Part shown: piece by piece, positions 3,872 to 60,517 of the stretch
Layout of the letters: each line of letters opens with the position of its first letter
Position numbering within the stretch: the first letter of the stretch is position 1
From: an uncultured bacterium
Lineage (GTDB): Bacteria; Omnitrophota; Omnitrophia; Omnitrophales; Abzuiibacteriaceae
DNA: 64,000 bases
Direction: 5' to 3'
Assembly (NCBI GenBank): GCA_964387845.1
Contig: CAYLXA010000001.1
Span: 1 to 64,000 of the forward strand
The notes under the pieces: model-generated
Told to the model about the DNA's origin: nothing
Databases searched by the model: none
What the model saw: only the letters and a program-made list of their open reading frames with translations
Position numbers and translations under genes: made by a program

Positions 3872-5914
3872 CTAAACCTTATTGAAAACGAGTTTAATAA
3901 ATCCACCTAACAGCAAAATAGCGGGAATAAAGAAAATAGAGACACTAAAGAGAATGGCGTGTTCAGAGCCGCTCAATATAAACGGTTCGCGGGACGACGG
4001 GCTGGCTTTAAATACAAATTTTTCATCCGGGCGCTCAGACATCAGCCATTTAACAATGATGACCAGAAAATCCCGATTCCCGAGCAGCTCAATCCGCGAA
4101 TTCACCAGCCAGTCGCTGTCGCCTATGACCGCCATTTTACCGCCCGACTTTTGCTCCTCCAGCGCGCACACAACCGCCACAGGGCCGGCGATATCTTCCT
4201 TTTCATTAAATTCGGCCTTATCATTTTCCAAATCTGTGAGATTCGTCTCTGCCCAGCTGCCCTTTCCGGTCCGCGCGATTTCGGTAATTTCGATATTGTC
4301 CGGAACGTTGAGGCGCTTGCGGACCGAGCGCGTGACGGGCATGATGACCGGCTTGGTAAAATTTTGGACGCTTGCGTGCGACCCAAAATCGGTGACAACC
4401 ATGGCAAGCTTCTCGACGCCTTGCAGTTGGCTGAATTTATCGATCATCACATTGCGCCCAAAATCAACGCCGAGTTCCCACAAAAACCGCCGGATGTGCT
4501 CGCCTTCTTTGGGAAAGACAGGGTCAACCGCAATCAAAACACTGCCGCCCGATTCAAAATGGCGGCGCAGAACCTCAATCTCATCGCGGCTTAAGTCCGA
4601 ATGCGGGCCGGCCAGCAAAATCAAATCTTGCGGATTCAAATCTTCAATGCGGGTCAAAACCGATTCCTGCAATTCATACCGCAGACTTTTGATTTTGGCC
4701 GCGAGGTTTTCATAGCCCATCTCATTTTGATCCGCGAGACTCGGCTCACCGTGCCCGATGGCAAAAAAAATCCGGCGTTCGCGTTTTTCCAGGAACGACG
4801 CGAGCGCGGCGGTAATTTTATTTTCATCCGGAAAACTGACCGTCATTTTTTTCCCTTTTGCTTCGACAATGGTCGCGCCGTAAGCGTCGACACGGTTTTC
4901 GAGCGCTTCCTCGGGATTTTGATCGGGATCGACGAGTTTGTACTTGAAGCCCGGCGCACGATAAGCGTATTCTTGGAGCACATTCTCAACATTTTTAAAA
5001 TTGACATCGCGGCGCGATAAAAACGCCGTGATTAAAATGGGGTCACGCCCGAATTGTTTTAAAACACCTTCGGTTTGTACGGAAAGAAGATTCTGGTTGG
5101 TGTCTGATAAATCAATCCGGCGTAAAAATTCGGGCGGCAATACGCAGAGCAGCGCAATCACGGCAAGGCTTGTGATGATCCGGCCGTTCGACTTTGATTT
5201 TTGCTTTTTGGCGTAAAAAAGTGTCCGGCTGAAAATAATCCAAACGCACACAGTGTAAATTAAAATCGCTTTGATATCTAAAATTCCCCGGCTGAATTCA
5301 CCGATAAGCGTAAACGGCAGCCATCTTTGGCCCGGCCACGTAAACTGACCGGCAAACCAAAGCAATCCGCACGTGAATAAAGACGCCAGAAAAGCTCTTT
5401 TCCGGTTTTTATCCGCGGCAGTGAAAAAAATCGAGCATGCAACGAACAAAACCGTGACCAACAGAACACCCAGAAAAGCCGATGCAAGCCGCCCGGAATC
5501 CAACCCGCCTTTCATGATCTGTAAAATAAAGAACCCAAGCGACGACGGCAGTAAAATCAAAATCGAAAACGAAAGTACGGTCAAATATTTTCCCGAAAGC
5601 GTTTTGCCGGCCGTCAACTTGATGAAAATCAGTTTTTGGCTTCGGTGAATAACCAAATCCGCCAGGATCGGAACCGCGATGACCAGCACCCACACCACAT
5701 TGACGAGGTGCGGATGGATGAGCGCCTGGTTCAGGTCAAAAAAGTAGTGTGGATCTTCGGCCAGCCGCTTCACGGAAAGTGCGTGCGCCACATACACATT
5801 GGTCCAAAACAGCATTCCTGTGATGAGCGTTCCCAAGATCAGGAACAAAAATTCAAAAAAGGATGATAACTGAAGGTTTAGAAAGGTCCGGGAAGTTTTT
5901 AGAATGGAACTCAT
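3872..5914 (-). CDS. Fused ABC-2-type permease-like N-terminal domain plus GldG-like ABC-transporter auxiliary domain membrane protein
   Basis: 680 aa. An N-terminal multi-TM segment is followed by a central region ('FFAIGHGEPSLADQNEMGYENLAAKI...LILLAGPHSDLSRDEIEVLRRHFESGGSVLIAVDP') matching the ABC_transp_aux/GldG pattern, with a C-terminal TM anchor. Confidence 0.5.
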   Translation of the reverse strand: MSSILKTSRTFLNLQLSSFFEFLFLILGTLITGMLFWTNVYVAHALSVKRLAEDPHYFFDLNQALIHPHLVNVVWVLVIAVPILADLVIHRSQKLIFIKLTAGKTLSGKYLTVLSFSILILLPSSLGFFILQIMKGGLDSGRLASAFLGVLLVTVLFVACSIFFTAADKNRKRAFLASLFTCGLLWFAGQFTWPGQRWLPFTLIGEFSRGILDIKAILIYTVCVWIIFSRTLFYAKKQKSKSNGRIITSLAVIALLCVLPPEFLRRIDLSDTNQNLLSVQTEGVLKQFGRDPILITAFLSRRDVNFKNVENVLQEYAYRAPGFKYKLVDPDQNPEEALENRVDAYGATIVEAKGKKMTVSFPDENKITAALASFLEKRERRIFFAIGHGEPSLADQNEMGYENLAAKIKSLRYELQESVLTRIEDLNPQDLILLAGPHSDLSRDEIEVLRRHFESGGSVLIAVDPVFPKEGEHIRRFLWELGVDFGRNVMIDKFSQLQGVEKLAMVVTDFGSHASVQNFTKPVIMPVTRSVRKRLNVPDNIEITEIARTGKGSWAETNLTDLENDKAEFNEKEDIAGPVAVVCALEEQKSGGKMAVIGDSDWLVNSRIELLGNRDFLVIIVKWLMSERPDEKFVFKASPSSREPFILSGSEHAILFSVSIFFIPAILLLGGFIKLVFNKV

Positions 5915-5922
5915 GTTATTTT

Positions 5923-5950
5923 GTACGGGCGAGGCACGCCTCGCCCCTAC
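5923..5950. repeat. 28-nt palindromic repeat, copy 4 (tyrS / GldG-like intergenic)
   Basis: gtacgggcgaggcacgcctcgcccctac. Confidence 0.8.
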
Positions 5951-7170
5951 TTAAGACTGACGCGGGCAAACTTGCGCTTGCCGCATTGCACAATCACCGC
6001 CGGATCGAGCGCAAAACTGGATTCCGGCGACTCGACTTTTGATTTATTGACTTTGACGCCGCCCTGCTCGACTAAGCGGCGGCCTTCGCTTTTGCTCGCC
6101 ACGAGGCCGGCTTCTTTGAGAAGGTTCACGATATCGATTTTGCCGTTTTGAAGCAAACTTTTAGAAATTTTCACTTCTTCAATTTCATCCGGCATTTCTT
6201 TATTCTTGAATACCTGATCGAACTGGTCGCTCGCTTTTCCGGCAGCGTCTTTTCCGTAATAAATCGTGATAATGTCACGCGCCAGCTGGGCTTTCGCGTT
6301 GCGCGGATTGGTTTCGATTTCTTTGGCGCTGATTTTACTGGAAGTTAAATACTGGAAATATTTGGCAATGAGCGGATCCGGAATCGACATCACTTTTCCG
6401 AACATTTGATCCGGCGCATCCTGCAAAGCAATGTGATTCGAGAGTGATTTGGACATTTTCTGTTTGCCGTCCAAGCCTTCAATGATCGGAAGCGTCATCA
6501 CGACTTGCGGCTCCTGGCCGTAATCGCGCTGAAGTTCACGGCCCACAAGCAGATTGAATTTCTGATCGGTGCCGCCAAGCTCGACATCGGCCTTCAAAGC
6601 AACGGAATCGTAGCCCTGCATCAAGGGATACAGAAATTCCAGAATCGTGATCGGTTGCTTGTCGTCGTAGCGCTTCTTAAAATCATCGCGCTCCAAAATC
6701 CGCGCGACGGTGTATTTAGACGTGAGCGCTAGAAAATCCGCAGGCTTCAAAGCATCCAGCCATTTGGAATTGTAAACCACTTCGACATTTTTATTTTTAT
6801 CGAGAATTTTGAAGACTTGTGCTTGATACGTTTCCGCGTTTTTCTTGATCTCTGCTTCCGAAAGCGGCTTGCGGGTTTCCGAACGGTGCGACGGATCGCC
6901 GATACGCGCCGTAAAATCGCCGATCAGAAAGACGATCGTGTGGCCGAGCTCCTGAAGCGCTTTGAGTTTGCGGAGCGGAACCGTGTGGCCCAAATGCAAA
7001 TCCGGAGCCGAAGGGTCGGCGCCGTATTTGATCCGGAGTGGTTTGCCGCGTTCAAGCTTCTTCAGCAAATCGGCTTCGGAAATCAGGTCGACTGTATTTT
7101 CTTTGAATATTTTGAGCTGGTCTTGGGGCTTCATAGTGTTAAGTTTACAGAAATCAACCGCGCGATTCAA
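5947..7170 (-). CDS. tyrS: Tyrosyl-tRNA synthetase (true start possibly 7134, MKPQDQL)
   Basis: Class I 'HLGH' and 'KMSKS' motifs, with a C-terminal S4-like domain. Confidence 0.9.
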
Positions 7171-9193: not shown

Positions 9194-11203
9194 ATGACAA
9201 ACGCTATCTTCCAGACAGGTTTTTTGATGACGATGTGGGCAGCTGCCGTTTTATCAATCGCCGCCCTGACTGTGGGCGTCAAGCGGCTGAGCGCCATCGC
9301 CCTGTTTTTGATTTTCATGGTGATTGCCGGCTGGGCCTACTTCAGCCAGCAAGCCATGGAACTTATTTTCACGCAAAATGCCGCGCAGCAGTCTTTGCTT
9401 AACCTCGCTTCAATGATTTTGCTTTTACTGCCGCCTCTTTTTTATCATTTAGCCTGCCTCGTGATGCGCAGGTCGTGGACGCTGCGCCTTTCGCTCGGCA
9501 CCATTTATGCCCTGCATCTATTTTTTGTCGGGCTTATTAATTATCGATATGTGCCAGAAGGCGACGAATCGTTCGCGATCCACTTTTGGTTTTTTCAAAT
9601 TTTCCTGTCTGATCTTTACCGCACACTCTTCTTTGCGACTTTCATAGCGGCTATCATCCGCATGGCCCAGTTTCACGTCGAAGTCAACGGGCGACTCCGG
9701 TTCCGGGTCCAGTACCTGCTGCTGTCAATTTTTGTGCTCATCGTCGGATATTTGGGCACACCGGGCTTTAGCAACCTGCTTTTCGGGCTTGATCCGATGC
9801 CGCAAATGCTGCTCGCGTTTCCCTGCTTTGCACTGCTTACTTCTTACGCGATTTTATCCAATGCAACGATGAGCATTCAGCGGGGCACGGTCCGGTTCTC
9901 GATTTTCGCGGCTGTCATCGCCAGTTTCGTCTGGTGCCTGATGACGCTCAGCGCGATTTTGCCGGTCTACGCCGGAAGGCTTGAACTCATCCATCCTTAT
10001 CTGGCGCAAATCCTGGCTGCAGTCATCGTGACCGGTGTTTACATCACCGCATACCGTCTGATTCAAAGTTTGGTTAATAAATTCGCCAAAAAACAAAACG
10101 ACGAGGTCCAAAATACCGTTCTGCAGGTTGCTGCCAAAGCCGCATCCGAAAAGAACCTCACGGAAGCCGTCCGGATTTCGATGGATTTTTTAAGAGATTA
10201 TTTCCGGCTCGACGAAGTAGCGCTGCTTGTTAAAGAGGATGAAAAGGACATTTACACGGTGAAATACTGCCACGGGCTCGATTTCTTCCGGTTGAAGGGT
10301 TTTGAAGTTGCTAAGAGCTTGATCAAATGGCTGAACGACAAGCGCCGCTCTTTTATTTTGAGCGAAGAAATGCAGAACATGACACCTTCGGTTTTTTATG
10401 AACATACTTACACGCTGCGCGATTTAAAATTGGAAGCATGCCATCCGCTGTTCATTAAAGAAGTGTTGGGCGGAATTGTGCTTTTGGGTTTCAAAGAGAA
10501 ACGGCAAATTTATACGCAACGGGATCTGAATCTCATCACCATCATGAGCACCATCCTGGCTTCTATTATCGAAAACCAACGGCTGCTGGGCCAGGCAGTC
10601 ACGGATGGTTTGACCGGCCTTTTCCATCAGAAATATTTCAAGGCCCGCCTGGGCGAAGCGCTTGAGCGCAGCAATCATAATAAATCCGAGCTGGCTTTAA
10701 TTTTGCTCGATATTGACCACTTTAAAAAGCTGAATGATACGCAAGGGCACTTGGCCGGTGACCGGGTCCTTCAGGGCATTTCGAAAACACTGCAGGAAAC
10801 CGTCCGTTCAAACGACATTCTCGCCCGCTACGGCGGTGAAGAATTTGCGGTTTTTATTTACAGGCCTTATGCGGGCAACCAAGTCGAAAAACACGACCTT
10901 TTGACCGCCGCGGAACGGCTTGCCGAAAAAATGCGCGTGAATGTGAAGGACAAGAAAATCCTCTACAACGACCGCCTTCTACAGGCAACCATCAGTGTCG
11001 GCGTTGGCTTTAAAGACCCCGGCGAAACCAATCTTTCGGTTCAGGAACTCATTGAAAGAGCGGATCAAGCGCTTTACCACGCCAAACGGCACGGACGCGA
11101 CCGGGTTGCCATTGCCACGCGGTTCGGGATCCGCATTGAAGAACCTTCTATTGAGCCGCCCGACACCGATCCTTTCTCTAAAAATCCGGGCCCCAACGTT
11201 TAA
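9194..11203 (+). CDS. Membrane-anchored sensor diguanylate cyclase (multi-TM N-terminus, GAF, GGDEF)
   Basis: 'RYGGEEFAVFIY' GGEEF active site. The domain is preceded by a GAF-like region and an N-terminal hydrophobic domain of about 7 TM helices. Confidence 0.85.
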   Translation: MTNAIFQTGFLMTMWAAAVLSIAALTVGVKRLSAIALFLIFMVIAGWAYFSQQAMELIFTQNAAQQSLLNLASMILLLLPPLFYHLACLVMRRSWTLRLSLGTIYALHLFFVGLINYRYVPEGDESFAIHFWFFQIFLSDLYRTLFFATFIAAIIRMAQFHVEVNGRLRFRVQYLLLSIFVLIVGYLGTPGFSNLLFGLDPMPQMLLAFPCFALLTSYAILSNATMSIQRGTVRFSIFAAVIASFVWCLMTLSAILPVYAGRLELIHPYLAQILAAVIVTGVYITAYRLIQSLVNKFAKKQNDEVQNTVLQVAAKAASEKNLTEAVRISMDFLRDYFRLDEVALLVKEDEKDIYTVKYCHGLDFFRLKGFEVAKSLIKWLNDKRRSFILSEEMQNMTPSVFYEHTYTLRDLKLEACHPLFIKEVLGGIVLLGFKEKRQIYTQRDLNLITIMSTILASIIENQRLLGQAVTDGLTGLFHQKYFKARLGEALERSNHNKSELALILLDIDHFKKLNDTQGHLAGDRVLQGISKTLQETVRSNDILARYGGEEFAVFIYRPYAGNQVEKHDLLTAAERLAEKMRVNVKDKKILYNDRLLQATISVGVGFKDPGETNLSVQELIERADQALYHAKRHGRDRVAIATRFGIRIEEPSIEPPDTDPFSKNPGPNV

Positions 11204-11294: not shown

Positions 11295-12419
11295 ATGCCG
11301 CCAAAAGGAGTTCTGTCATTTAAACTTGTCGTGTTATTGGCTTCGGCTGTTTTCGCAGGCTGCAGCGTGGCGCCCAAATCCCCCATCTCCCTTCTTGACC
11401 TGCTTTCAAAACCGGACTCCGGTGAGCATCAAACCTATCGCGGCGTTTTTCATATTCACAGCCGTTATTCACACGATTCTTCGGGATCCGTTTCAAGCAT
11501 CATTAAAACCGCTCGGAAAAACAAACTCGATTTCGTTGTCGTGACCGATCACAACACGACAGAAGCAAAAACCGATCCGGCAGCGGTTCGGCATAGCGGC
11601 TCGCCGCTTTTAATTGTCGGAAGCGAACTTTCGACCACGGACGGCCATCTCATCGCGCTCGGCACTGATCAGAAATTTGAAGATCCGATCAATCCGCAAA
11701 CGGCGATTGATATGATCAAACAAAGCGGCGGATTTTCGGTTTTGGCGCATCCCGTTTGCGACAAATCCTACTGGAAAAATTGGGAAGTCCGGAATTTCGA
11801 TGCCATGGAAGTTTATAATCACGCCTGTGATTTTTATGATGCCAACAAATTCGGCTTTGTGATGAAAACGGTTTTGTTTTCACCGGACCTATTCGCCAAA
11901 TTCATCGTCCGCGAGCCGCGTGAAGCGCTTGGAAAATGGGATACGCTGATGCTCGAACGCGGGCGCGTAATTTCCGCGGTTGGCGCACTCGATGCGCATG
12001 TCCGGTACCGCATTTTGGGATTTCCGCTCATGCGCTACAGCAACGCTCTTCAAATTGTCACGCTTTATGTGCCCGCCAAATCGCTGTCTGAGCAGGAAAT
12101 TTTGCGGAATCTTGCGGCCGGCAACTCTTATTTCGCATTTGAATCGCAGGGCAATGCCGCCGGATTCAAATTTCAGCTCCGGAGCGCTTCGCAAATTTAC
12201 GGCATGGGCAGCACTGCAGAGTCCGAAGCGCCTTTGATGCTGGCGGTTCAGCTTCCCAAATCGGCGGAAGTACGCATCATACACAACGGAAAAATGATCA
12301 AAACGGCATATGCTTCAATCTTTTCGATGGATATTCCGGGTCCCGGCATTTACCGGGTGGAGGTTTTTGAACGTGGAAAAATGTGGATTGTTTCTAATCC
12401 GATTATGGTTCAAGCGTAA
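11295..12419 (+). CDS. PHP-family metal-dependent phosphoesterase, lipoprotein
   Basis: 'VFHIHSRYSHDSSG' and 'DFVVVTDHNT' PHP His motifs. A lipobox-like 'VFAGCSV' follows the signal peptide. Confidence 0.6.
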   Translation: MPPKGVLSFKLVVLLASAVFAGCSVAPKSPISLLDLLSKPDSGEHQTYRGVFHIHSRYSHDSSGSVSSIIKTARKNKLDFVVVTDHNTTEAKTDPAAVRHSGSPLLIVGSELSTTDGHLIALGTDQKFEDPINPQTAIDMIKQSGGFSVLAHPVCDKSYWKNWEVRNFDAMEVYNHACDFYDANKFGFVMKTVLFSPDLFAKFIVREPREALGKWDTLMLERGRVISAVGALDAHVRYRILGFPLMRYSNALQIVTLYVPAKSLSEQEILRNLAAGNSYFAFESQGNAAGFKFQLRSASQIYGMGSTAESEAPLMLAVQLPKSAEVRIIHNGKMIKTAYASIFSMDIPGPGIYRVEVFERGKMWIVSNPIMVQA

Positions 12420-16299: not shown

Positions 16300-17160
16300 A
16301 TGCCCGCCATGAAAAATCAGATTCATCCCACAGCCATCATCGGCAAAAAGGTTGATTTGGGCGAAGCGAACGAAATCGGCCCGCATGCCATTATTGAAGA
16401 CGGCGTCAAACTCGGCTCGGCCAACAAGATTCTCGCCAATGCCTACATTTCATCCGGAACCGAATTGGGCAACAATAACGAAATCCACATGGGCGCCATC
16501 GTGGGCCATGCGCCGCAGGATGTGGCTTACAAAGGCGCCAAAACGTTCACTAAAATTGGCGACTCCAATATCATCCGCGAATACGCCACCATTCACCGCG
16601 GCACGAAAGAAGGCACCGCAACCATCATTGGAAACCACAATTTCATCATGGCGAATGCGCATATCGCACACAACTGCGTGCTCGGCAACCGGATCATCAT
16701 GGTGAATATGGCTTCACTCACCGGCCATTGTGAGGTGGAGGACATGGCGTTTCTCTCCGGCATGACGGGCTTTCATCAATTTACGCGCATCGGAACCCTC
16801 GCCATGGTGAGTGCGCTTTCTGCGATCAACAAAGACATTCCGCCCTACATGATTTGCGGCGGACGGCCGGGCGTGATTCAAGGGATTAACGTGGTGGGAT
16901 TAAGGCGCGCCGGAATTTCGCAAGCGATTCGCACGGAAATCAAAGAATCTTACCGGTTACTTTACCGTTCGGGGTTAAATGTAGAACAAGCTCTGAAAGA
17001 AATCGAAAAGAATTTCAAATCCAAAGAAGTCGCTCACCTCACCAGCTTCATCCGCTCCTCGAAGCGCGGCATCTGCGCCGGGCAAAAAGAGGGACTGGAA
17101 ACACTACTCTCCAAAAAAGGCAGCTCCGCTGGAATTCTGGAAGACGAAGAAGAAGTTTAA
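16300..17160 (+). CDS. lpxA: Acyl-ACP–UDP-N-acetylglucosamine O-acyltransferase
   Basis: Left-handed beta-helix hexapeptide repeats and strong colinearity with E. coli LpxA ('HPTAII', 'NAHIAHNCVLGNR', 'DIPPYMI', 'YRLLYRSG'). Confidence 0.85.
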   Translation: MPAMKNQIHPTAIIGKKVDLGEANEIGPHAIIEDGVKLGSANKILANAYISSGTELGNNNEIHMGAIVGHAPQDVAYKGAKTFTKIGDSNIIREYATIHRGTKEGTATIIGNHNFIMANAHIAHNCVLGNRIIMVNMASLTGHCEVEDMAFLSGMTGFHQFTRIGTLAMVSALSAINKDIPPYMICGGRPGVIQGINVVGLRRAGISQAIRTEIKESYRLLYRSGLNVEQALKEIEKNFKSKEVAHLTSFIRSSKRGICAGQKEGLETLLSKKGSSAGILEDEEEV

Positions 17161-18395
17161 ATTTTTCCGATTACAAGAATTGAGTTTTTGCCGCCGAAGC
17201 CGAAGGAATTTTTCATCGCGATGTTGATTTTCGCAGGGCGCGCCTTGTTCGGCACGTAATCCAAATCGCATTCAGGGTCCGGCGTCCCGTAATTAATTGT
17301 AGGCGGCAATGTTTGATTCTCGATGGCGAGCAAAGTCGCAATCAATTCCACGCTTCCGGCCGCACCGATCAAATGCCCGACCATGGATTTGGTTGCGCTC
17401 ACCGGAATTTTCTTCGCGTGATCACCAAACACTTGCTTAATAATCAGTGTTTCGGTTTTGTCATTGAGAGGCGTTGAAGTGCCATGCGCGTTGATGTAAT
17501 CGATTTTGTCAGGCGTGACACCTGCAGTTTTAAGCGCAAGCTGCATCGCGCGAGCCGCTTCTCTGCCGGCCGGATCAGGACTTGTCATATGATATGCATC
17601 GCAAGTCATTCCGCTGCCCAAAACTTCGGCGTAAATATGTGCGCCGCGCTTTTTAGCGTGTTCATATTCTTCAAGAAACATCATGCCCGCACCTTCACCG
17701 AGCACAAAGCCATCACGGTCCCGGCTGAAAGGCCGCGACGCCGTTTCCGGCGCATCATTGCGGGTTGATAGAGCGCGCGCCACGCAAAATGCGGCCAAAA
17801 TTCCGGGATACATCGAAGCTTCAGCACCGCCCGTCAACATGAAATCCGCCGTACCGTTCCGAATCGCTTCCGTCGCGAAACTCACGGCGTCAGACGCTGA
17901 CGAACACGCGGTTGAAACTGAATAACTCGGGCCTGAAATTCCAAATTCGATCGAGACCTGAGATGCGCACGCATCCGGAAACGATGCAAGCGCCGTGTAA
18001 GGGCTGATGCGCATCGGCCCTTTTTCCATCAAAGTTGTGTGCTGATTGAGAATGTAGCCGTGTCCCGCCATCGCGGTTCCGATGATCACGCCCGTACGTT
18101 CGCGGGCCCCATTTTCACCCGGATGAAAACCCGCGTCTTGAACAGCCATCTTGGAACACGCGACCGCAAATTGGGACGTGCGGTCCATGCGCTTCACTTC
18201 TTTGTGTTCGACGTACTGGAGAGGTTCAAAGTTTTTAACTTCGCCACCAAATTTGGTGGTGAAATCGGAAGTGTCGAAAGCGGTAATGGGAGAAACGCCT
18301 GAGCGGCCGTTTTTGAGCGCGTCCCAAAATGCGTCTTTGCCGATGCCATTACAGGCAACGACCCCGATTCCGGTAATGACTACGCGGCGTTTCAC
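17157..18395 (-). CDS. fabF: 3-oxoacyl-ACP synthase II
   Basis: 412 aa KAS II. Active-site Cys is in 'SVSTACSS'. His/His are in 'NAHGTSTPLND' and 'KSMVGHLIGAAG'. Confidence 0.9.
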   Translation of the reverse strand: MKRRVVITGIGVVACNGIGKDAFWDALKNGRSGVSPITAFDTSDFTTKFGGEVKNFEPLQYVEHKEVKRMDRTSQFAVACSKMAVQDAGFHPGENGARERTGVIIGTAMAGHGYILNQHTTLMEKGPMRISPYTALASFPDACASQVSIEFGISGPSYSVSTACSSASDAVSFATEAIRNGTADFMLTGGAEASMYPGILAAFCVARALSTRNDAPETASRPFSRDRDGFVLGEGAGMMFLEEYEHAKKRGAHIYAEVLGSGMTCDAYHMTSPDPAGREAARAMQLALKTAGVTPDKIDYINAHGTSTPLNDKTETLIIKQVFGDHAKKIPVSATKSMVGHLIGAAGSVELIATLLAIENQTLPPTINYGTPDPECDLDYVPNKARPAKINIAMKNSFGFGGKNSILVIGKI

Positions 18396-27039: not shown

Positions 27040-27215
27040 CAAAGATCGTGGCGGATCCGCTAAGCAGTGTGGCGGAGGTAAACTAACTGAAAAGTTGGGG
27101 CGCAAAGCAAGAGGTCCGAAATGAAATTAAAAGGATGGCTCGGCTGCCGAAATTCATATTCAGAATTTGGAATAAACGCCCGTACTTTTTAGTACGGGCG
27201 TTTATGTTTTTATGG
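27040..27215 (+). promoter_or_regulatory. Candidate c-di-GMP-I (GEMM) riboswitch with an intrinsic-terminator expression platform in the 5' leader of the pilin-like gene
   Basis: 27071-27106 'GGCGGAGGUAAACU-AACU-GAAA-AGUU-GGGGCGCAAAGC' matches the GEMM core 'GGCAAACC-stem-GNRA-stem-GGGACGCAAAGCC' with identical spacing. A 13-bp perfect hairpin plus U-tract sits at 27174-27212, and the ATG is at 27226. Confidence 0.5.
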
Positions 27216-27225
27216 AGAAAAACGG

Positions 27226-28218
27226 ATGAAGCAAAAAAAGTTGGGTGTAACGCTGGTTGAAATCATGATTGTGGTTGCCATCATCGGTATAGTGGCAGCA
27301 TTCGCAATCCCCAACTATCTACGTTCAAGGCAAACAGCCGATACCGCTTCTTTGGAACAAACCGCACGTCAGATTGCGCAAAAAATGGAACAAATTTTCT
27401 GGGGCCAGAATCCAAACGAATATCCGCCGGAATTGTCGATGCCTTCCGGGCTTGTCACGTGGGCTGCGCCAACCAACTTGGGCAATATTCAAGATTTGCT
27501 TGAATTGCTCAAGAAAATTTGTGAACAACAGGGTAAAAGCTTGTCATCCGGCCAAATCGGAGATTTGACGGCCTCTGAAATTGCTGCCGATCCCGAAGCC
27601 ATGCAAGCGCTCGTTGAAACTTGTTTCCAGAACAATCCGCCACTAACATACACAACACCGGCCGGCGGACAAACCTATTTATTTTCTGTGTCATCACCCA
27701 ATGGAACCAACTACACGGCAAGCCCGGGCGGCGTCAGCCAAACGCCTCCCGATTGCACCGGTGATGCCGGATGCGATGACGGTGTTTATTGCAATGGTGT
27801 TGAAACCTGCCAGTACGGAAGCTGCCAGGCCGGAATTAGTCCGTGCGACGAAGGATATACCTGCCACGAATCTTATCAGGAATGTACTGAGGGCATCTGC
27901 GGAAACGGTATTTGGGAAGGTTATGAAGAATGCGGTGAAGAAGATACGGGATTTAGTTATGAATTCATGGAATGCATTAATTGCCGCTGGGAATTCGTCG
28001 GCTGCCCAGAGGGTTACTATTTCTACGACTGGGCATGCTATCCATCGCCGCCCGACTGCCCATCAGGCTCTTACAAACAACCCGGTCTCGGATGCTGTTG
28101 GCCCGATCCCGGCATGCCGCCGTGGCCAAGACCTATTCAACTGCCTACTTGCGGAGAAGTCGCTGAAGTAATCCCGGATGGCGGCGGGCCCCCTCCGATG
28201 GACGACCCGTCATTTTAA
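27226..28218 (+). CDS. Prepilin-type (GspG/type IV pilin-like) protein with a large Cys-rich C-terminal domain
   Basis: N-terminal 'KKLGVTLVEIMIVVAIIGIVAAFAIPNY' class III signal/methylation motif. The C-terminal 160 aa contain about 30 Cys in CGNG..E.CGE-type repeats (myxobacterial Cys-rich-repeat-like). Confidence 0.75.
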   Translation: MKQKKLGVTLVEIMIVVAIIGIVAAFAIPNYLRSRQTADTASLEQTARQIAQKMEQIFWGQNPNEYPPELSMPSGLVTWAAPTNLGNIQDLLELLKKICEQQGKSLSSGQIGDLTASEIAADPEAMQALVETCFQNNPPLTYTTPAGGQTYLFSVSSPNGTNYTASPGGVSQTPPDCTGDAGCDDGVYCNGVETCQYGSCQAGISPCDEGYTCHESYQECTEGICGNGIWEGYEECGEEDTGFSYEFMECINCRWEFVGCPEGYYFYDWACYPSPPDCPSGSYKQPGLGCCWPDPGMPPWPRPIQLPTCGEVAEVIPDGGGPPPMDDPSF

Positions 28219-58964: not shown

Positions 58965-59084
58965 TCTATCTCCTTTAAATTCAACTAGTTACGCTATATT
59001 ATATATTGCGGAAAGTCAGGTATTGTAGCACATCCACAGATAAAAACCACTGTTTTGTAGACATGTTTTGCGGAGCTGCCGTTT

Positions 59085-59386
59085 GTACATTTTAACAGCG
59101 AAGACCTCAGCTGAGACGCGTCTGAAGGCTCGAGCGGGCATGGGGGGGCGGCAAGGGATATCTTCCGGCACCGGCAGTTCGGCTCTTCCTGCGAGAGCCG
59201 CCTGCCTCGGCGCTCACCGTTTGAATCCCGCCAGAAACGGCGGGAGCCAAGCTTCAAACGGTTGCGCGACGTGCCTACAGATATTCCTTGCCGCCGAGTG
59301 AGAGCCGGAAGTCGAGTGAAGACTTGCCTCGCCGGGGCAAGTCGAGCGTCGGCGAAGCTGAGAGTCTGAGCAAAGTTAAAATGTGC
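59085..59386. repeat. GC-rich ~300-nt repeat element with terminal inverted repeats (copy Y)
   Basis: It starts 'gtacattttaacagcgaagacctcagctgag' and ends 'gtctgagcaaagttaaaatgtgc'. It is homologous to 15894-16187 in the same orientation. Confidence 0.6.
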
Positions 59387-59425
59387 GGGCGCTAGTTCTG
59401 CAGAAAAGTTTTTAGGGTGTGAAAA

Positions 59426-60469
59426 CTACTTGAGCGTCGCGAAAACTTCGCGGTTGGTGGGATACTTGGCGAGCGCTTCTATTAATGTTTTCATGGCTTC
59501 CGGCGGGTTTAGATCGGCGAGTGTATGGCGGATTTTTGCGATTTGTTCGCGCTCTTCTGCGCCAAGCAAAAGTTCTTCTTTGCGCGTACCGCTTTTCGAA
59601 ATATCAACTGCCGGAAAAATGCGCCGGCTCGAGATGTCGCGCGATAAATAAATTTCCATATTCCCCGTTCCCTTGAATTCTTCAAAGATCACTTGGTCCA
59701 TCCGTGAGCCGGTGTCGACCAAAATGGTCGCAAGAATCGTGAGCGATCCTCCGTTTTCGATTTTGCGCGCGGCGCCAAAAATCCGGCGCGGCGTTTCAAG
59801 CGCCCGCGCGTCCACGCCGCCCGAAAGCGTGCGGCCGCTATTACGCTGCTCGGCATTATGAACACGCGCAAGCCGCGTCAGCGAATCCACGAGCAGCACA
59901 ACATCTTTGCCGGCCGCGGTTTCTTCGAAGATTTGCTGCATCAGCGCATTCGCCGTTTCAATATGATGTTCCTGTGATTCGTCAAGTGACGAAGAACGGA
60001 CTTCCGCCGGCACGCTGCGTTTAAAATCGGTGACTTCTTCCGGCCGTTCATTAACGAGCAGGCAATAAAGTTTTGCATTGGGAGAGCATTTGGAAATCGC
60101 GACACAGAGATGTTTCAGAAATGTGGTTTTCCCAGATCCCGGAGGCGCCACGATGAGTCCGCGCTGGCCAAATCCGATCGGACAAATCAGGTCCATCACA
60201 CGCATTGTCATCTCACTTGATCCGTCTTCAAGCCGAATTCTAGGGGACGGATCAATCGCGGTCCCTGCAAGGAACTTTTTCTCCGCTTCACCGGGTTGCA
60301 ACTTCGGACGAGATTTCAAATCTCGCCGAATAGCACTCGAATCATAAGGATTCGAGTGGCGGCGGGACGACGGTTGCTGCCCGCGTTGGCGCGAATCATT
60401 CGGATTCAAGCGGTACGGTTGGTCATAACGATTGTTAGAACGATTATTGGAACGATTGTCTCTTCTCAT
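59426..60469 (-). CDS. rho: Transcription termination factor Rho, short form lacking the canonical N-terminal OB-fold domain
   Basis: The C-terminal RecA-like ATPase is colinear with E. coli Rho from about residue 127 ('[11 protein letters not shown]', '[13 protein letters not shown]', '[39 protein letters not shown]'). The first ~65 aa are R/N/Q/S-rich low complexity. Confidence 0.85.
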
Positions 60470-60517
60470 AATGTATTAATTTGCAGAAGCATATGCCGGA
60501 ATACGGCCGAAGACGGA

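Follow-up and report, generated by a model that had tools for sequence, protein, structure and literature searches.

The transcription termination factor Rho has a primary RNA-binding site that is regarded as the source of its termination selectivity, and it is still debated whether Rho finds its targets via the RNA or via RNA polymerase. Canonical Rho, represented by the E. coli protein (1PV4, 3ICE and 5JJI in the PDB; NCBIfam model TIGR00767), combines an N-terminal domain (NTD), composed of a helix bundle and an OB-fold with the primary site, with a connector and a C-terminal ATPase motor. Several variants of this plan are known. According to a domain-based survey (Moreira et al. 2024, PMC11347177), 'Type 4' or 'Group B' Rho, e.g. 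that of Fusobacterium nucleatum, is devoid of Rho_N but keeps the RNA-binding and ATPase domains, and is often a second rho copy; the NCBIfam model NF041509 (paralog_Rho2, 'short form') also describes proteins with a shortened N-terminus that are often second copies. Type 2 Rho (M. tuberculosis, M. luteus, B. thetaiotaomicron) carries an intact NTD with added Arg-rich, low-complexity disordered sequence, which has been proposed or shown to add RNA affinity or to drive condensates (PMC11347177, PMC12360218). The same survey reserves the term 'Rho-like', as opposed to functional Rho, for proteins in which no more than one Rho domain was detected (421 species). Here we analyze a stretch of 64,000 nucleotides from an uncultured Omnitrophota bacterium (contig CAYLXA010000001.1, assembly GCA_964387845.1; henceforth the window), which encodes a 347-aa Rho-family ATPase without any NTD.

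The protein resembles Type 4 Rho and NF041509 in its shortened N-terminus and in the frequent second-copy status of its relatives, but it differs from the former (PMC11347177) by the absence of the RNA-binding domain, and it scores far below the cut-off of the latter (333.4 bits vs 628), matching positions 77–359 of 360. The first 76 positions of NF041509 remain unmatched and probably represent the OB domain; the model is also failed by related short forms, one gammaproteobacterial (L021), one Omnitrophota-type (P0016), and by three other ATPase-only proteins (P0124, P0125 and P0150), with 289–351 bits. The protein shares the Arg-rich, low-complexity disordered N-terminal sequence with Type 2 Rho, but here this sequence occupies the position of the NTD instead of being added to it, and it is much shorter (median ~30 aa). 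FliI/type III secretion ATPases and the F1-ATPase beta subunit have the same RecA-type hexameric ATPase fold and no OB RNA-binding domain, but their models give at most 80 bits vs cut-offs of ~380–750, and they lack the Q- and R-loop signatures of Rho. By the definition of the survey the protein is 'Rho-like', with a single Rho domain; Omnitrophota genomes are absent from its data set, and its main text does not contain the clade structure, the conserved motor residues or the basic tails reported below (PMC11347177).

Domain content and motor residues

The gene (59426..60469, minus strand) is a complete open reading frame (ORF) with an ATG start, encoding 347 aa followed by a stop codon. The Pfam analysis identified in its product the ATP-synt_ab domain alone (residues 89–293; E = 6.6e-18), i.e. 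the RecA-type ATPase core (59591..60205, minus strand), and no match to PF07498 (Rho_N) or PF07497 (Rho_RNA_bind). The NCBIfam Rho models were matched at positions ~130–413 only: the protein exceeds the cut-off of NF006886 (380.6 bits vs 315; model positions 130–412) and remains below that of TIGR00767 (365.1 vs 509.45). In a tblastn search, residues 123–417 of E. coli Rho aligned to positions 60298–59429 of the window with 48% identity, and in the Rho chains from the PDB the residues from ~137–143 onward pair with residues 65–70 onward of the window protein. An initial annotation, made from the DNA sequence, had described this ORF as a Rho factor alignable to the E. coli protein only from about residue 127; its coordinates and description are accurate according to the ORF list, Pfam, NCBIfam and tblastn, and the match to Rho starts at residue ~123–130 of the E. 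coli protein. The missing part was not found elsewhere in the window, either by a tblastn search with residues 1–130 of E. coli Rho (best E = 4.4) or by a hidden Markov model (HMM) of the Rho OB domain, built in this work, used against the six-frame translation of all 64 kb. By its motor domain, the window protein is a member of the Rho superfamily that falls outside canonical three-domain Rho.

The AlphaFold2 monomer model (mean predicted local distance difference test score, pLDDT, 84.6; >90 from residue ~61) recovered the fold of the Rho motor. In Foldseek it matched chains of E. coli Rho best (root-mean-square deviation ~2 Å over ~285 columns), and the matched region is the Rho C-terminal domain, as judged from the residues aligned in the PDB and tblastn comparisons. 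No helix is predicted before residue 61, i.e. the Rho_N helix bundle is absent, and the N-terminal 58 residues are disordered. They are followed by a segment equivalent to the Rho connector (residues 59–90; 60200..60295, minus strand), which aligns to residues ~125–160 of E. coli Rho and in which F66, P74, P76, R77, E81 and G83 are invariant in an alignment of 57 Omnitrophota sequences. We considered whether the conservation of the connector is exceptional and rejected this idea; the ratio of its entropy to that of the core is 1.4–2.0, similar to the 1.9 in canonical Rho.

Residue conservation was analyzed in 185 short forms from the clade described below (121 Omnitrophota-type and 64 gammaproteobacterial) vs 133 representatives of canonical Rho; residue numbers with the prefix Ec refer to the E. 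coli protein. Nearly all short forms (~100%) retain Ec K184/T185, E211, R212, the Walker B D265, S266, R269, the Q-loop, the R-loop, G337 and R366, and the window protein carries the corresponding K114, T115, E141, R142, D195 and R296. Its Walker A motif (P-loop) spans A108–T116 (APPGSGKTT; 60122..60148, minus strand), with K114 equivalent to Ec K184, which is conserved in 100% of the short forms. The catalytic Glu E141 and the Arg valve R142 (60044–60049, minus strand; Ec E211/R212), as well as the arginine finger R296 (59582..59584, minus strand; Ec R366), are also 100% conserved. Both secondary RNA-binding sites of the central channel are present. The Q-loop corresponds to residues 206–222 (59804..59854, minus strand), including G212, R213, T214, L215, S216, G217 and G218, and in the clade its positions Ec G282, K283R, T286S, G287 and G288 are conserved in ~100%. 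The R-loop corresponds to residues 252–256 (DTGSR, Ec 322–326; 59702..59716, minus strand) and takes the form T-G-S-R-M-D in the clade; Ec T323, G324 and S325 are 100% conserved in the short forms, and position 326 is R in 98% of the Omnitrophota-type and 84% of the gammaproteobacterial sequences (Q in 14% and C in 2% of the latter). Arg in place of Ec K283 and K326 is likewise found in most canonical representatives.

The short forms differ from canonical Rho at a few positions that are otherwise conserved. Ec K181 is replaced by Gly (G111 in the window protein) in 100% of both the 121 Omnitrophota-type and the 64 gammaproteobacterial sequences, while K or R occupies this position in 98% of the 133 canonical representatives, and further clade-wide substitutions are M205Y, V228R/H and F232S. 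K181 lines the bicyclomycin pocket, and residues 203–232 presumably lie near the docking site of the NusG KOW domain. The substitutions may make the protein insensitive to bicyclomycin or change the way in which NusG docks. An outright loss of the NusG-KOW docking site, of which V228R/H and F232S are suggestive, is kept as a lead only.

Apart from the missing domain itself, nothing speaks for the possibility, mentioned in the initial annotation, that a frameshift, an assembly gap or a recent truncation has removed the NTD. The spacer between the ATG and the next gene upstream is 48 nt long (60470..60517, minus strand) and contains an in-frame TAA (60476–60478) 9 nt upstream of the ATG, so the ORF cannot be extended any further in this direction. 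Neither tblastn with Ec 1–130 nor the OB-domain HMM found a remnant of the NTD in any of the six frames of the window and of 90 related loci, and a hidden NTD was therefore rejected; in the 90 loci the HMM matched only genuine canonical Rho, once in L062, an uncultured member of Pseudomonadales, and twice on viral contigs. A Logan contig built from run SRR15237813, possibly the read set of the window as well, codes for an identical protein and has the same genes upstream of it. The best 120 database homologues are all 289–380 aa long, with PF00006 as their only Pfam domain; those named by their sources are called Rho, and the named organisms are mostly Omnitrophota/Omnitrophica metagenome-assembled genomes (MAGs). 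In 17 of 17 Omnitrophota-type loci the open frame is too short to accommodate an NTD. The cores are 62–91% identical across a phylum-deep set, and judging from these sequences the selection on the Rho core is strong. With the same architecture and fully conserved catalytic residues in many homologues from independent assemblies, the comparative sequence data refute the artefact or pseudogene interpretation, which we consider extremely improbable.

A clade of short Rho proteins and their N-terminal tails

The locus search, made in one genome per species, retrieved ~65 marine Gammaproteobacteria in addition to the Omnitrophota loci. Members of the clade were defined as ATPase-only proteins of 290–380 aa with the P-loop APPGSGKT (Gly at Ec 181) that fall inside the clade in the tree of the C-terminal domain, and the window protein agrees with this definition in length, P-loop and position in the tree. 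The gammaproteobacterial carriers include Marinobacter, Halomonas/Vreelandella, Marinomonas, Paraglaciecola, Colwellia, Microbulbifer and Gilvimarinus, many of them cultured RefSeq strains; their short forms, typically of 314–320 aa, are 59–67% identical to the window protein, vs 48% for E. coli Rho. In the neighbor-joining tree built from 292 columns of the C-terminal domain in 77 taxa (100 bootstraps) the short forms from Omnitrophota, Elusimicrobia and Gammaproteobacteria are monophyletic with a bootstrap of 89/100, which increases to 98/100 when the ATPase-only P0121 and P0124 (one of them named Sericytochromatia) are added. The gammaproteobacterial short forms are monophyletic (100/100) and weakly sister to those of Elusimicrobia (62/100), a placement consistent with acquisition by transfer. 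The tree is most simply read as a single ancient NTD loss, after which the short form was retained over the long term. The window protein is a member of a conserved and uncharacterised Rho branch, shared by Omnitrophota and Elusimicrobia and present as a second copy in many marine bacteria in culture; the literature searches gave no result on Rho in Omnitrophota and no paper on the NTD-less clade.

Some of the records deserve a comment. Marinobacter sp. QJJ-212 (L047) carries two NTD-less rho copies about 6 kb apart (9779–10873 and 16312–17364, both on the plus strand). Several MAG records with an Omnitrophota-type short rho (L007, L012, L013, L015, L016, L018, L019 and P0099) are titled Planctomycetales/Planctomycetia, Eisenbacteria or Verrucomicrobiae, and for these bins the taxonomy given by the submitters is probably not reliable. 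P0123 (400 aa, on a 15-kb ENA contig) comprises two near-identical Rho C-terminal halves with an Arg-rich linker between them and looks like a chimera resulting from assembly or gene calling.

The N-terminal tail of the window protein (residues 1–58; 60296..60469, minus strand) contains 13 R, 9 S, 8 N, 5 Q and 5 P (22% Arg, N+Q ~22%, 10% hydrophobic), carries a net charge of +10 and is predicted to be disordered (pLDDT 42–54), in agreement with the earlier description of a low-complexity segment rich in R, N and Q. It includes a direct peptide repeat, NRSNN-NRSNN (residues 5–14; 60428–60457, minus strand), which is coded by a near-tandem DNA repeat, and this suggests that the peptide repeat has expanded by replication slippage. 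Basic tails of at least 17 residues, often starting with MRNF or MKNF, are present in 17 of 17 Omnitrophota-type loci, and some database entries that seem to be devoid of a tail are gene-calling artefacts, e.g. P0045, which in L007 extends to an ORF of 329 aa that has a basic tail. The pooled Omnitrophota tails (median length ~30 aa, median net charge +5 to +6) consist of R in ~20%, P in 13–14%, S in 10%, H in 8–9% and N in 8%, with N+Q reaching 14%. Between the window protein and its closest homologues the tails are 17–28% identical and the cores 79–91%; from these comparisons the Omnitrophota tail appears to be fast-evolving in sequence and kept in composition.

ATPase-only Rho proteins with basic tails recur in candidate phyla, e.g. 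Hydrogenedentes and Sericytochromatia. In OB-less Rho proteins outside the clade (P0125, P0126, P0130, P0150 from Hydrogenedentes, and P0168) the tails contain 17–26% Arg and have net charges of +10 to +16. The recurrence of Arg-rich tails in independent OB-less lineages argues that a basic disordered segment may commonly serve as a functional substitute for the missing domain. One further OB-less Rho (L093, 8001–8987; P0273/P0125 cluster) is encoded on a 4.4-Mb long-read metagenomic contig; it is 328 aa long, has a tail with 26% Arg and a net charge of +10, and falls outside the well-supported short clade.

Proposed RNA loading and cellular role

We propose, with a probability of roughly 0.6, that the window protein is an intact Rho-like hexameric RNA-dependent translocase which loads without a rut-reading crown and uses its tail as a non-specific RNA tether. 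In this scheme the ancestor would have lost the whole NTD, i.e. both the helix bundle and the OB-fold primary RNA-binding site, and would have retained the connector and the full C-terminal motor. The protein is likely to assemble into a Rho-like ring acting as an RNA-dependent ATPase and 5'->3' translocase, which would grip RNA only through the Q- and R-loops of the central channel, and its function may lie in transcription termination or RNA surveillance. Without the YC-reading crown, such a ring could not read rut sites in the manner of the E. coli protein, and its loading would therefore have to be either sequence-unspecific or assisted. In Omnitrophota the most plausible solution is that the six Arg-rich disordered tails of a ring form a non-specific electrostatic RNA tether in place of the primary site; alternatively, the ring could be recruited via RNA polymerase or NusG. 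A partial precedent is offered, by analogy, by canonical Rho: stable contact of RNA with the primary site is needed in vivo at only a subset of the E. coli terminators (PMC4150792), and Arg-rich insertions increase the RNA affinity of M. tuberculosis and M. luteus Rho (PMC11347177). The suggestion in the initial annotation that RNA is loaded by a different mechanism is thus plausible, being supported by the basic composition of the tail and by the Arg-rich tails of independent OB-less lineages; the tail, however, carries too much charge for a prion-like segment, and none of the adjacent genes is conserved as a separately encoded partner.

Several observations weigh against our proposal. The primary site of E. 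coli Rho is not dispensable in vitro, where primary-site mutants cannot be rescued, and N-terminal deletion of the E. coli protein abolishes its RNA binding. The members from Elusimicrobia have only ~8–14 residues before the connector, i.e. almost no tail, and the gammaproteobacterial forms start with a K-rich motif, MTRKTLxLK, followed by an acidic stretch, with a net charge of about +2. The tail, nearly absent in the former and replaced by the K-rich motif in the latter, can therefore not be essential to the core function of the clade. Finally, gammaproteobacterial genomes have the clade as a second copy in addition to canonical Rho, and its role there need not be bulk termination.

The last point leads to an interpretation that shares much of its biochemistry with our proposal and differs from it in the cellular role, namely that a canonical Rho is encoded elsewhere in the Omnitrophota genome and that the NTD-less protein is a specialised or regulatory factor, which perhaps forms mixed hexamers with a diluted primary-site crown or remodels RNA and R-loops outside bulk termination. 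L062 encodes both a canonical Rho of 433 aa (4801–6102, plus strand), with an E. coli-type NTD of 80% identity, and, 5 kb apart, a 314-aa short form (9908–10852, plus strand), and the survey of 2730 genomes lists no member of Pseudomonadota that is devoid of a functional Rho (PMC11347177), so in Gammaproteobacteria the short form is a paralogue. The same status of the window protein would agree with the ~65 gammaproteobacterial genomes that carry the clade at 59–67% identity, with the DEAD-box helicase gene located convergently downstream in ~16 of the gammaproteobacterial loci, with the single phage-plasmid copy described below and the single genome with two tandem copies, and with the presence of at least two rho genes in each of 30 PVC-group genomes (Planctomycetota, Verrucomicrobiota or Chlamydiota; PMC11347177). 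On the other hand, the 64 kb of the window and the ±10 kb around the 17 Omnitrophota loci revealed neither canonical Rho nor any OB or Rho_N signal, although this is a test of low power; the gene resides in a housekeeping context and is conserved as strongly as a core gene, and the recurrence of ATPase-only Rho with basic tails in Hydrogenedentes and Sericytochromatia does not suggest an accessory factor either. We regard the paralogue interpretation as a serious, if not the favored, possibility.

RNA binding could also be provided in trans, by a stand-alone Rho_N+OB or cold-shock-domain (CSD) protein docking on the motor, as the domain missing from the window protein is CSD-like. A CspA-type CSD gene is indeed located 79 nt upstream of the short rho, in the same direction, in L007 (9605–9802, plus strand), and such genes occur within 0.7–2.3 kb in L002/L003 (13295–13495 in L002) and L040 (~11582–11740); stand-alone 'Rho-like' proteins with the N-terminal and RNA-binding domains have been reported in two Actinomycetota (PMC11347177). 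However, the window has neither a CSD nor an OB gene; csp genes are abundant, and the adjacency, seen in ~4 of 82 loci, is compatible with chance. No neighbor is conserved across the clade in these 82 loci, contrary to what a separately encoded adjacent partner would predict, and the 74-aa ORF upstream, for which Pfam, NCBIfam and PHROG gave no match and the related loci no homologue, was rejected as a candidate. A split Rho therefore appears improbable. We also consider it unlikely that the tail is a prion-like or phase-separating element which switches or concentrates Rho instead of binding RNA. Its low complexity, predicted disorder and N+Q content would allow this, and the Rho proteins of B. 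thetaiotaomicron and C. botulinum have disordered regions that drive condensates or prion behavior (PMC11347177, PMC12360218). However, the tails are short, almost absent from the Elusimicrobia members, and in pooled form richer in R (20%) than in N+Q (14%). Prion-like domains are poor in charged residues, and the high charge density of the window tail (22% Arg, net charge +10) argues against such a domain.

A bolder and only tentative version of our proposal is that Omnitrophota, and probably also Elusimicrobia, have no Rho other than the NTD-less protein, that the Arg-rich tail or recruitment by RNA polymerase or NusG replaces rut recognition, and that the motor was later transferred horizontally to marine Gammaproteobacteria as a second terminator of different specificity. 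If so, Rho-type termination or RNA surveillance would proceed in whole phyla without the help of a primary RNA-binding site. The initial annotation spoke of 'this organism's Rho'; the comparisons agree with the identity of the motor, but they give no ground for assuming that it is the sole Rho, as the members of this clade are paralogues in Gammaproteobacteria, which have canonical Rho in addition. In any case, a natural and strongly conserved Rho without the primary site would provide a test case for the questions whether such a protein terminates transcription, on which targets, and how it is loaded, and with cultured, genetically tractable carriers (Marinobacter, Halomonas/Vreelandella, Marinomonas) these can be addressed without cultivating Omnitrophota. 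There is also a practical side: annotation pipelines name such proteins 'transcription termination factor Rho', while the domain-based survey does not count proteins with a single detected Rho domain as functional Rho (PMC11347177), and the calls of presence or absence of Rho-dependent termination in candidate phyla consequently depend on the convention adopted.

Genomic neighborhood and mobile elements

The short rho of the window lies among housekeeping genes, with PPDK and an rpoD-type sigma factor downstream and, on the Logan contig, glyQS upstream. Its stop codon is separated from the start of the PPDK gene, on the same strand, by a non-coding gap of 460 nt (58965–59425), in which neither an Rfam match nor a terminator-like hairpin on the strand of the gene was found; promoter, terminator and Rfam scans around the gene gave nothing informative. 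A conserved operon partner was sought by all-against-all clustering of ORFs from 82 loci and rejected, as the recurrent neighbors are restricted to particular lineages: an ABC-F ATPase, the DEAD-box helicase mentioned above and an RsuA-like pseudouridine synthase, the last identified by sequence inspection. In Omnitrophota the ABC-F gene adjoins the short rho in 8 of 17 loci, and the ABC-F plus pyruvate kinase context is likewise seen in 8 of 17.

One member of the clade is encoded on plasmid pB of Spartinivicinus ruber (319 aa; L085, 6908–7867, plus strand; NZ_CP048880.1, 54176–55135). This NTD-less rho, annotated as 'transcription termination factor Rho', lies beside lysis genes on the strand opposite to that of the flanking genes, and the plasmid, with major and minor capsid proteins, a terminase and holins, looks like a phage-plasmid. 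It is the only match to the short clade in IMG/VR, and the scans of viral contigs revealed no other short-clade element; they returned in addition three Rho relatives of 47–55% identity, at least two of which have the OB domain. Other plasmid and phage matches are at most 56% identical and are annotated as ordinary Rho or not at all. The PADLOC (defence) and PHROG (phage) models gave only weak matches at the level of the P-loop (at most 28 bits). With a single phage-plasmid copy and no membership in PADLOC or PHROG families, a role in mobile elements or in defence was rejected.

Elsewhere in the window, a c-di-GMP-I riboswitch aptamer was identified at positions 27067–27151 of the plus strand (52.8 bits, gathering score 35), 75 nt upstream of an ORF of 330 aa (27226–28218, plus strand) with an N-terminal prokaryotic N-methylation (type IV pilin-like) motif.

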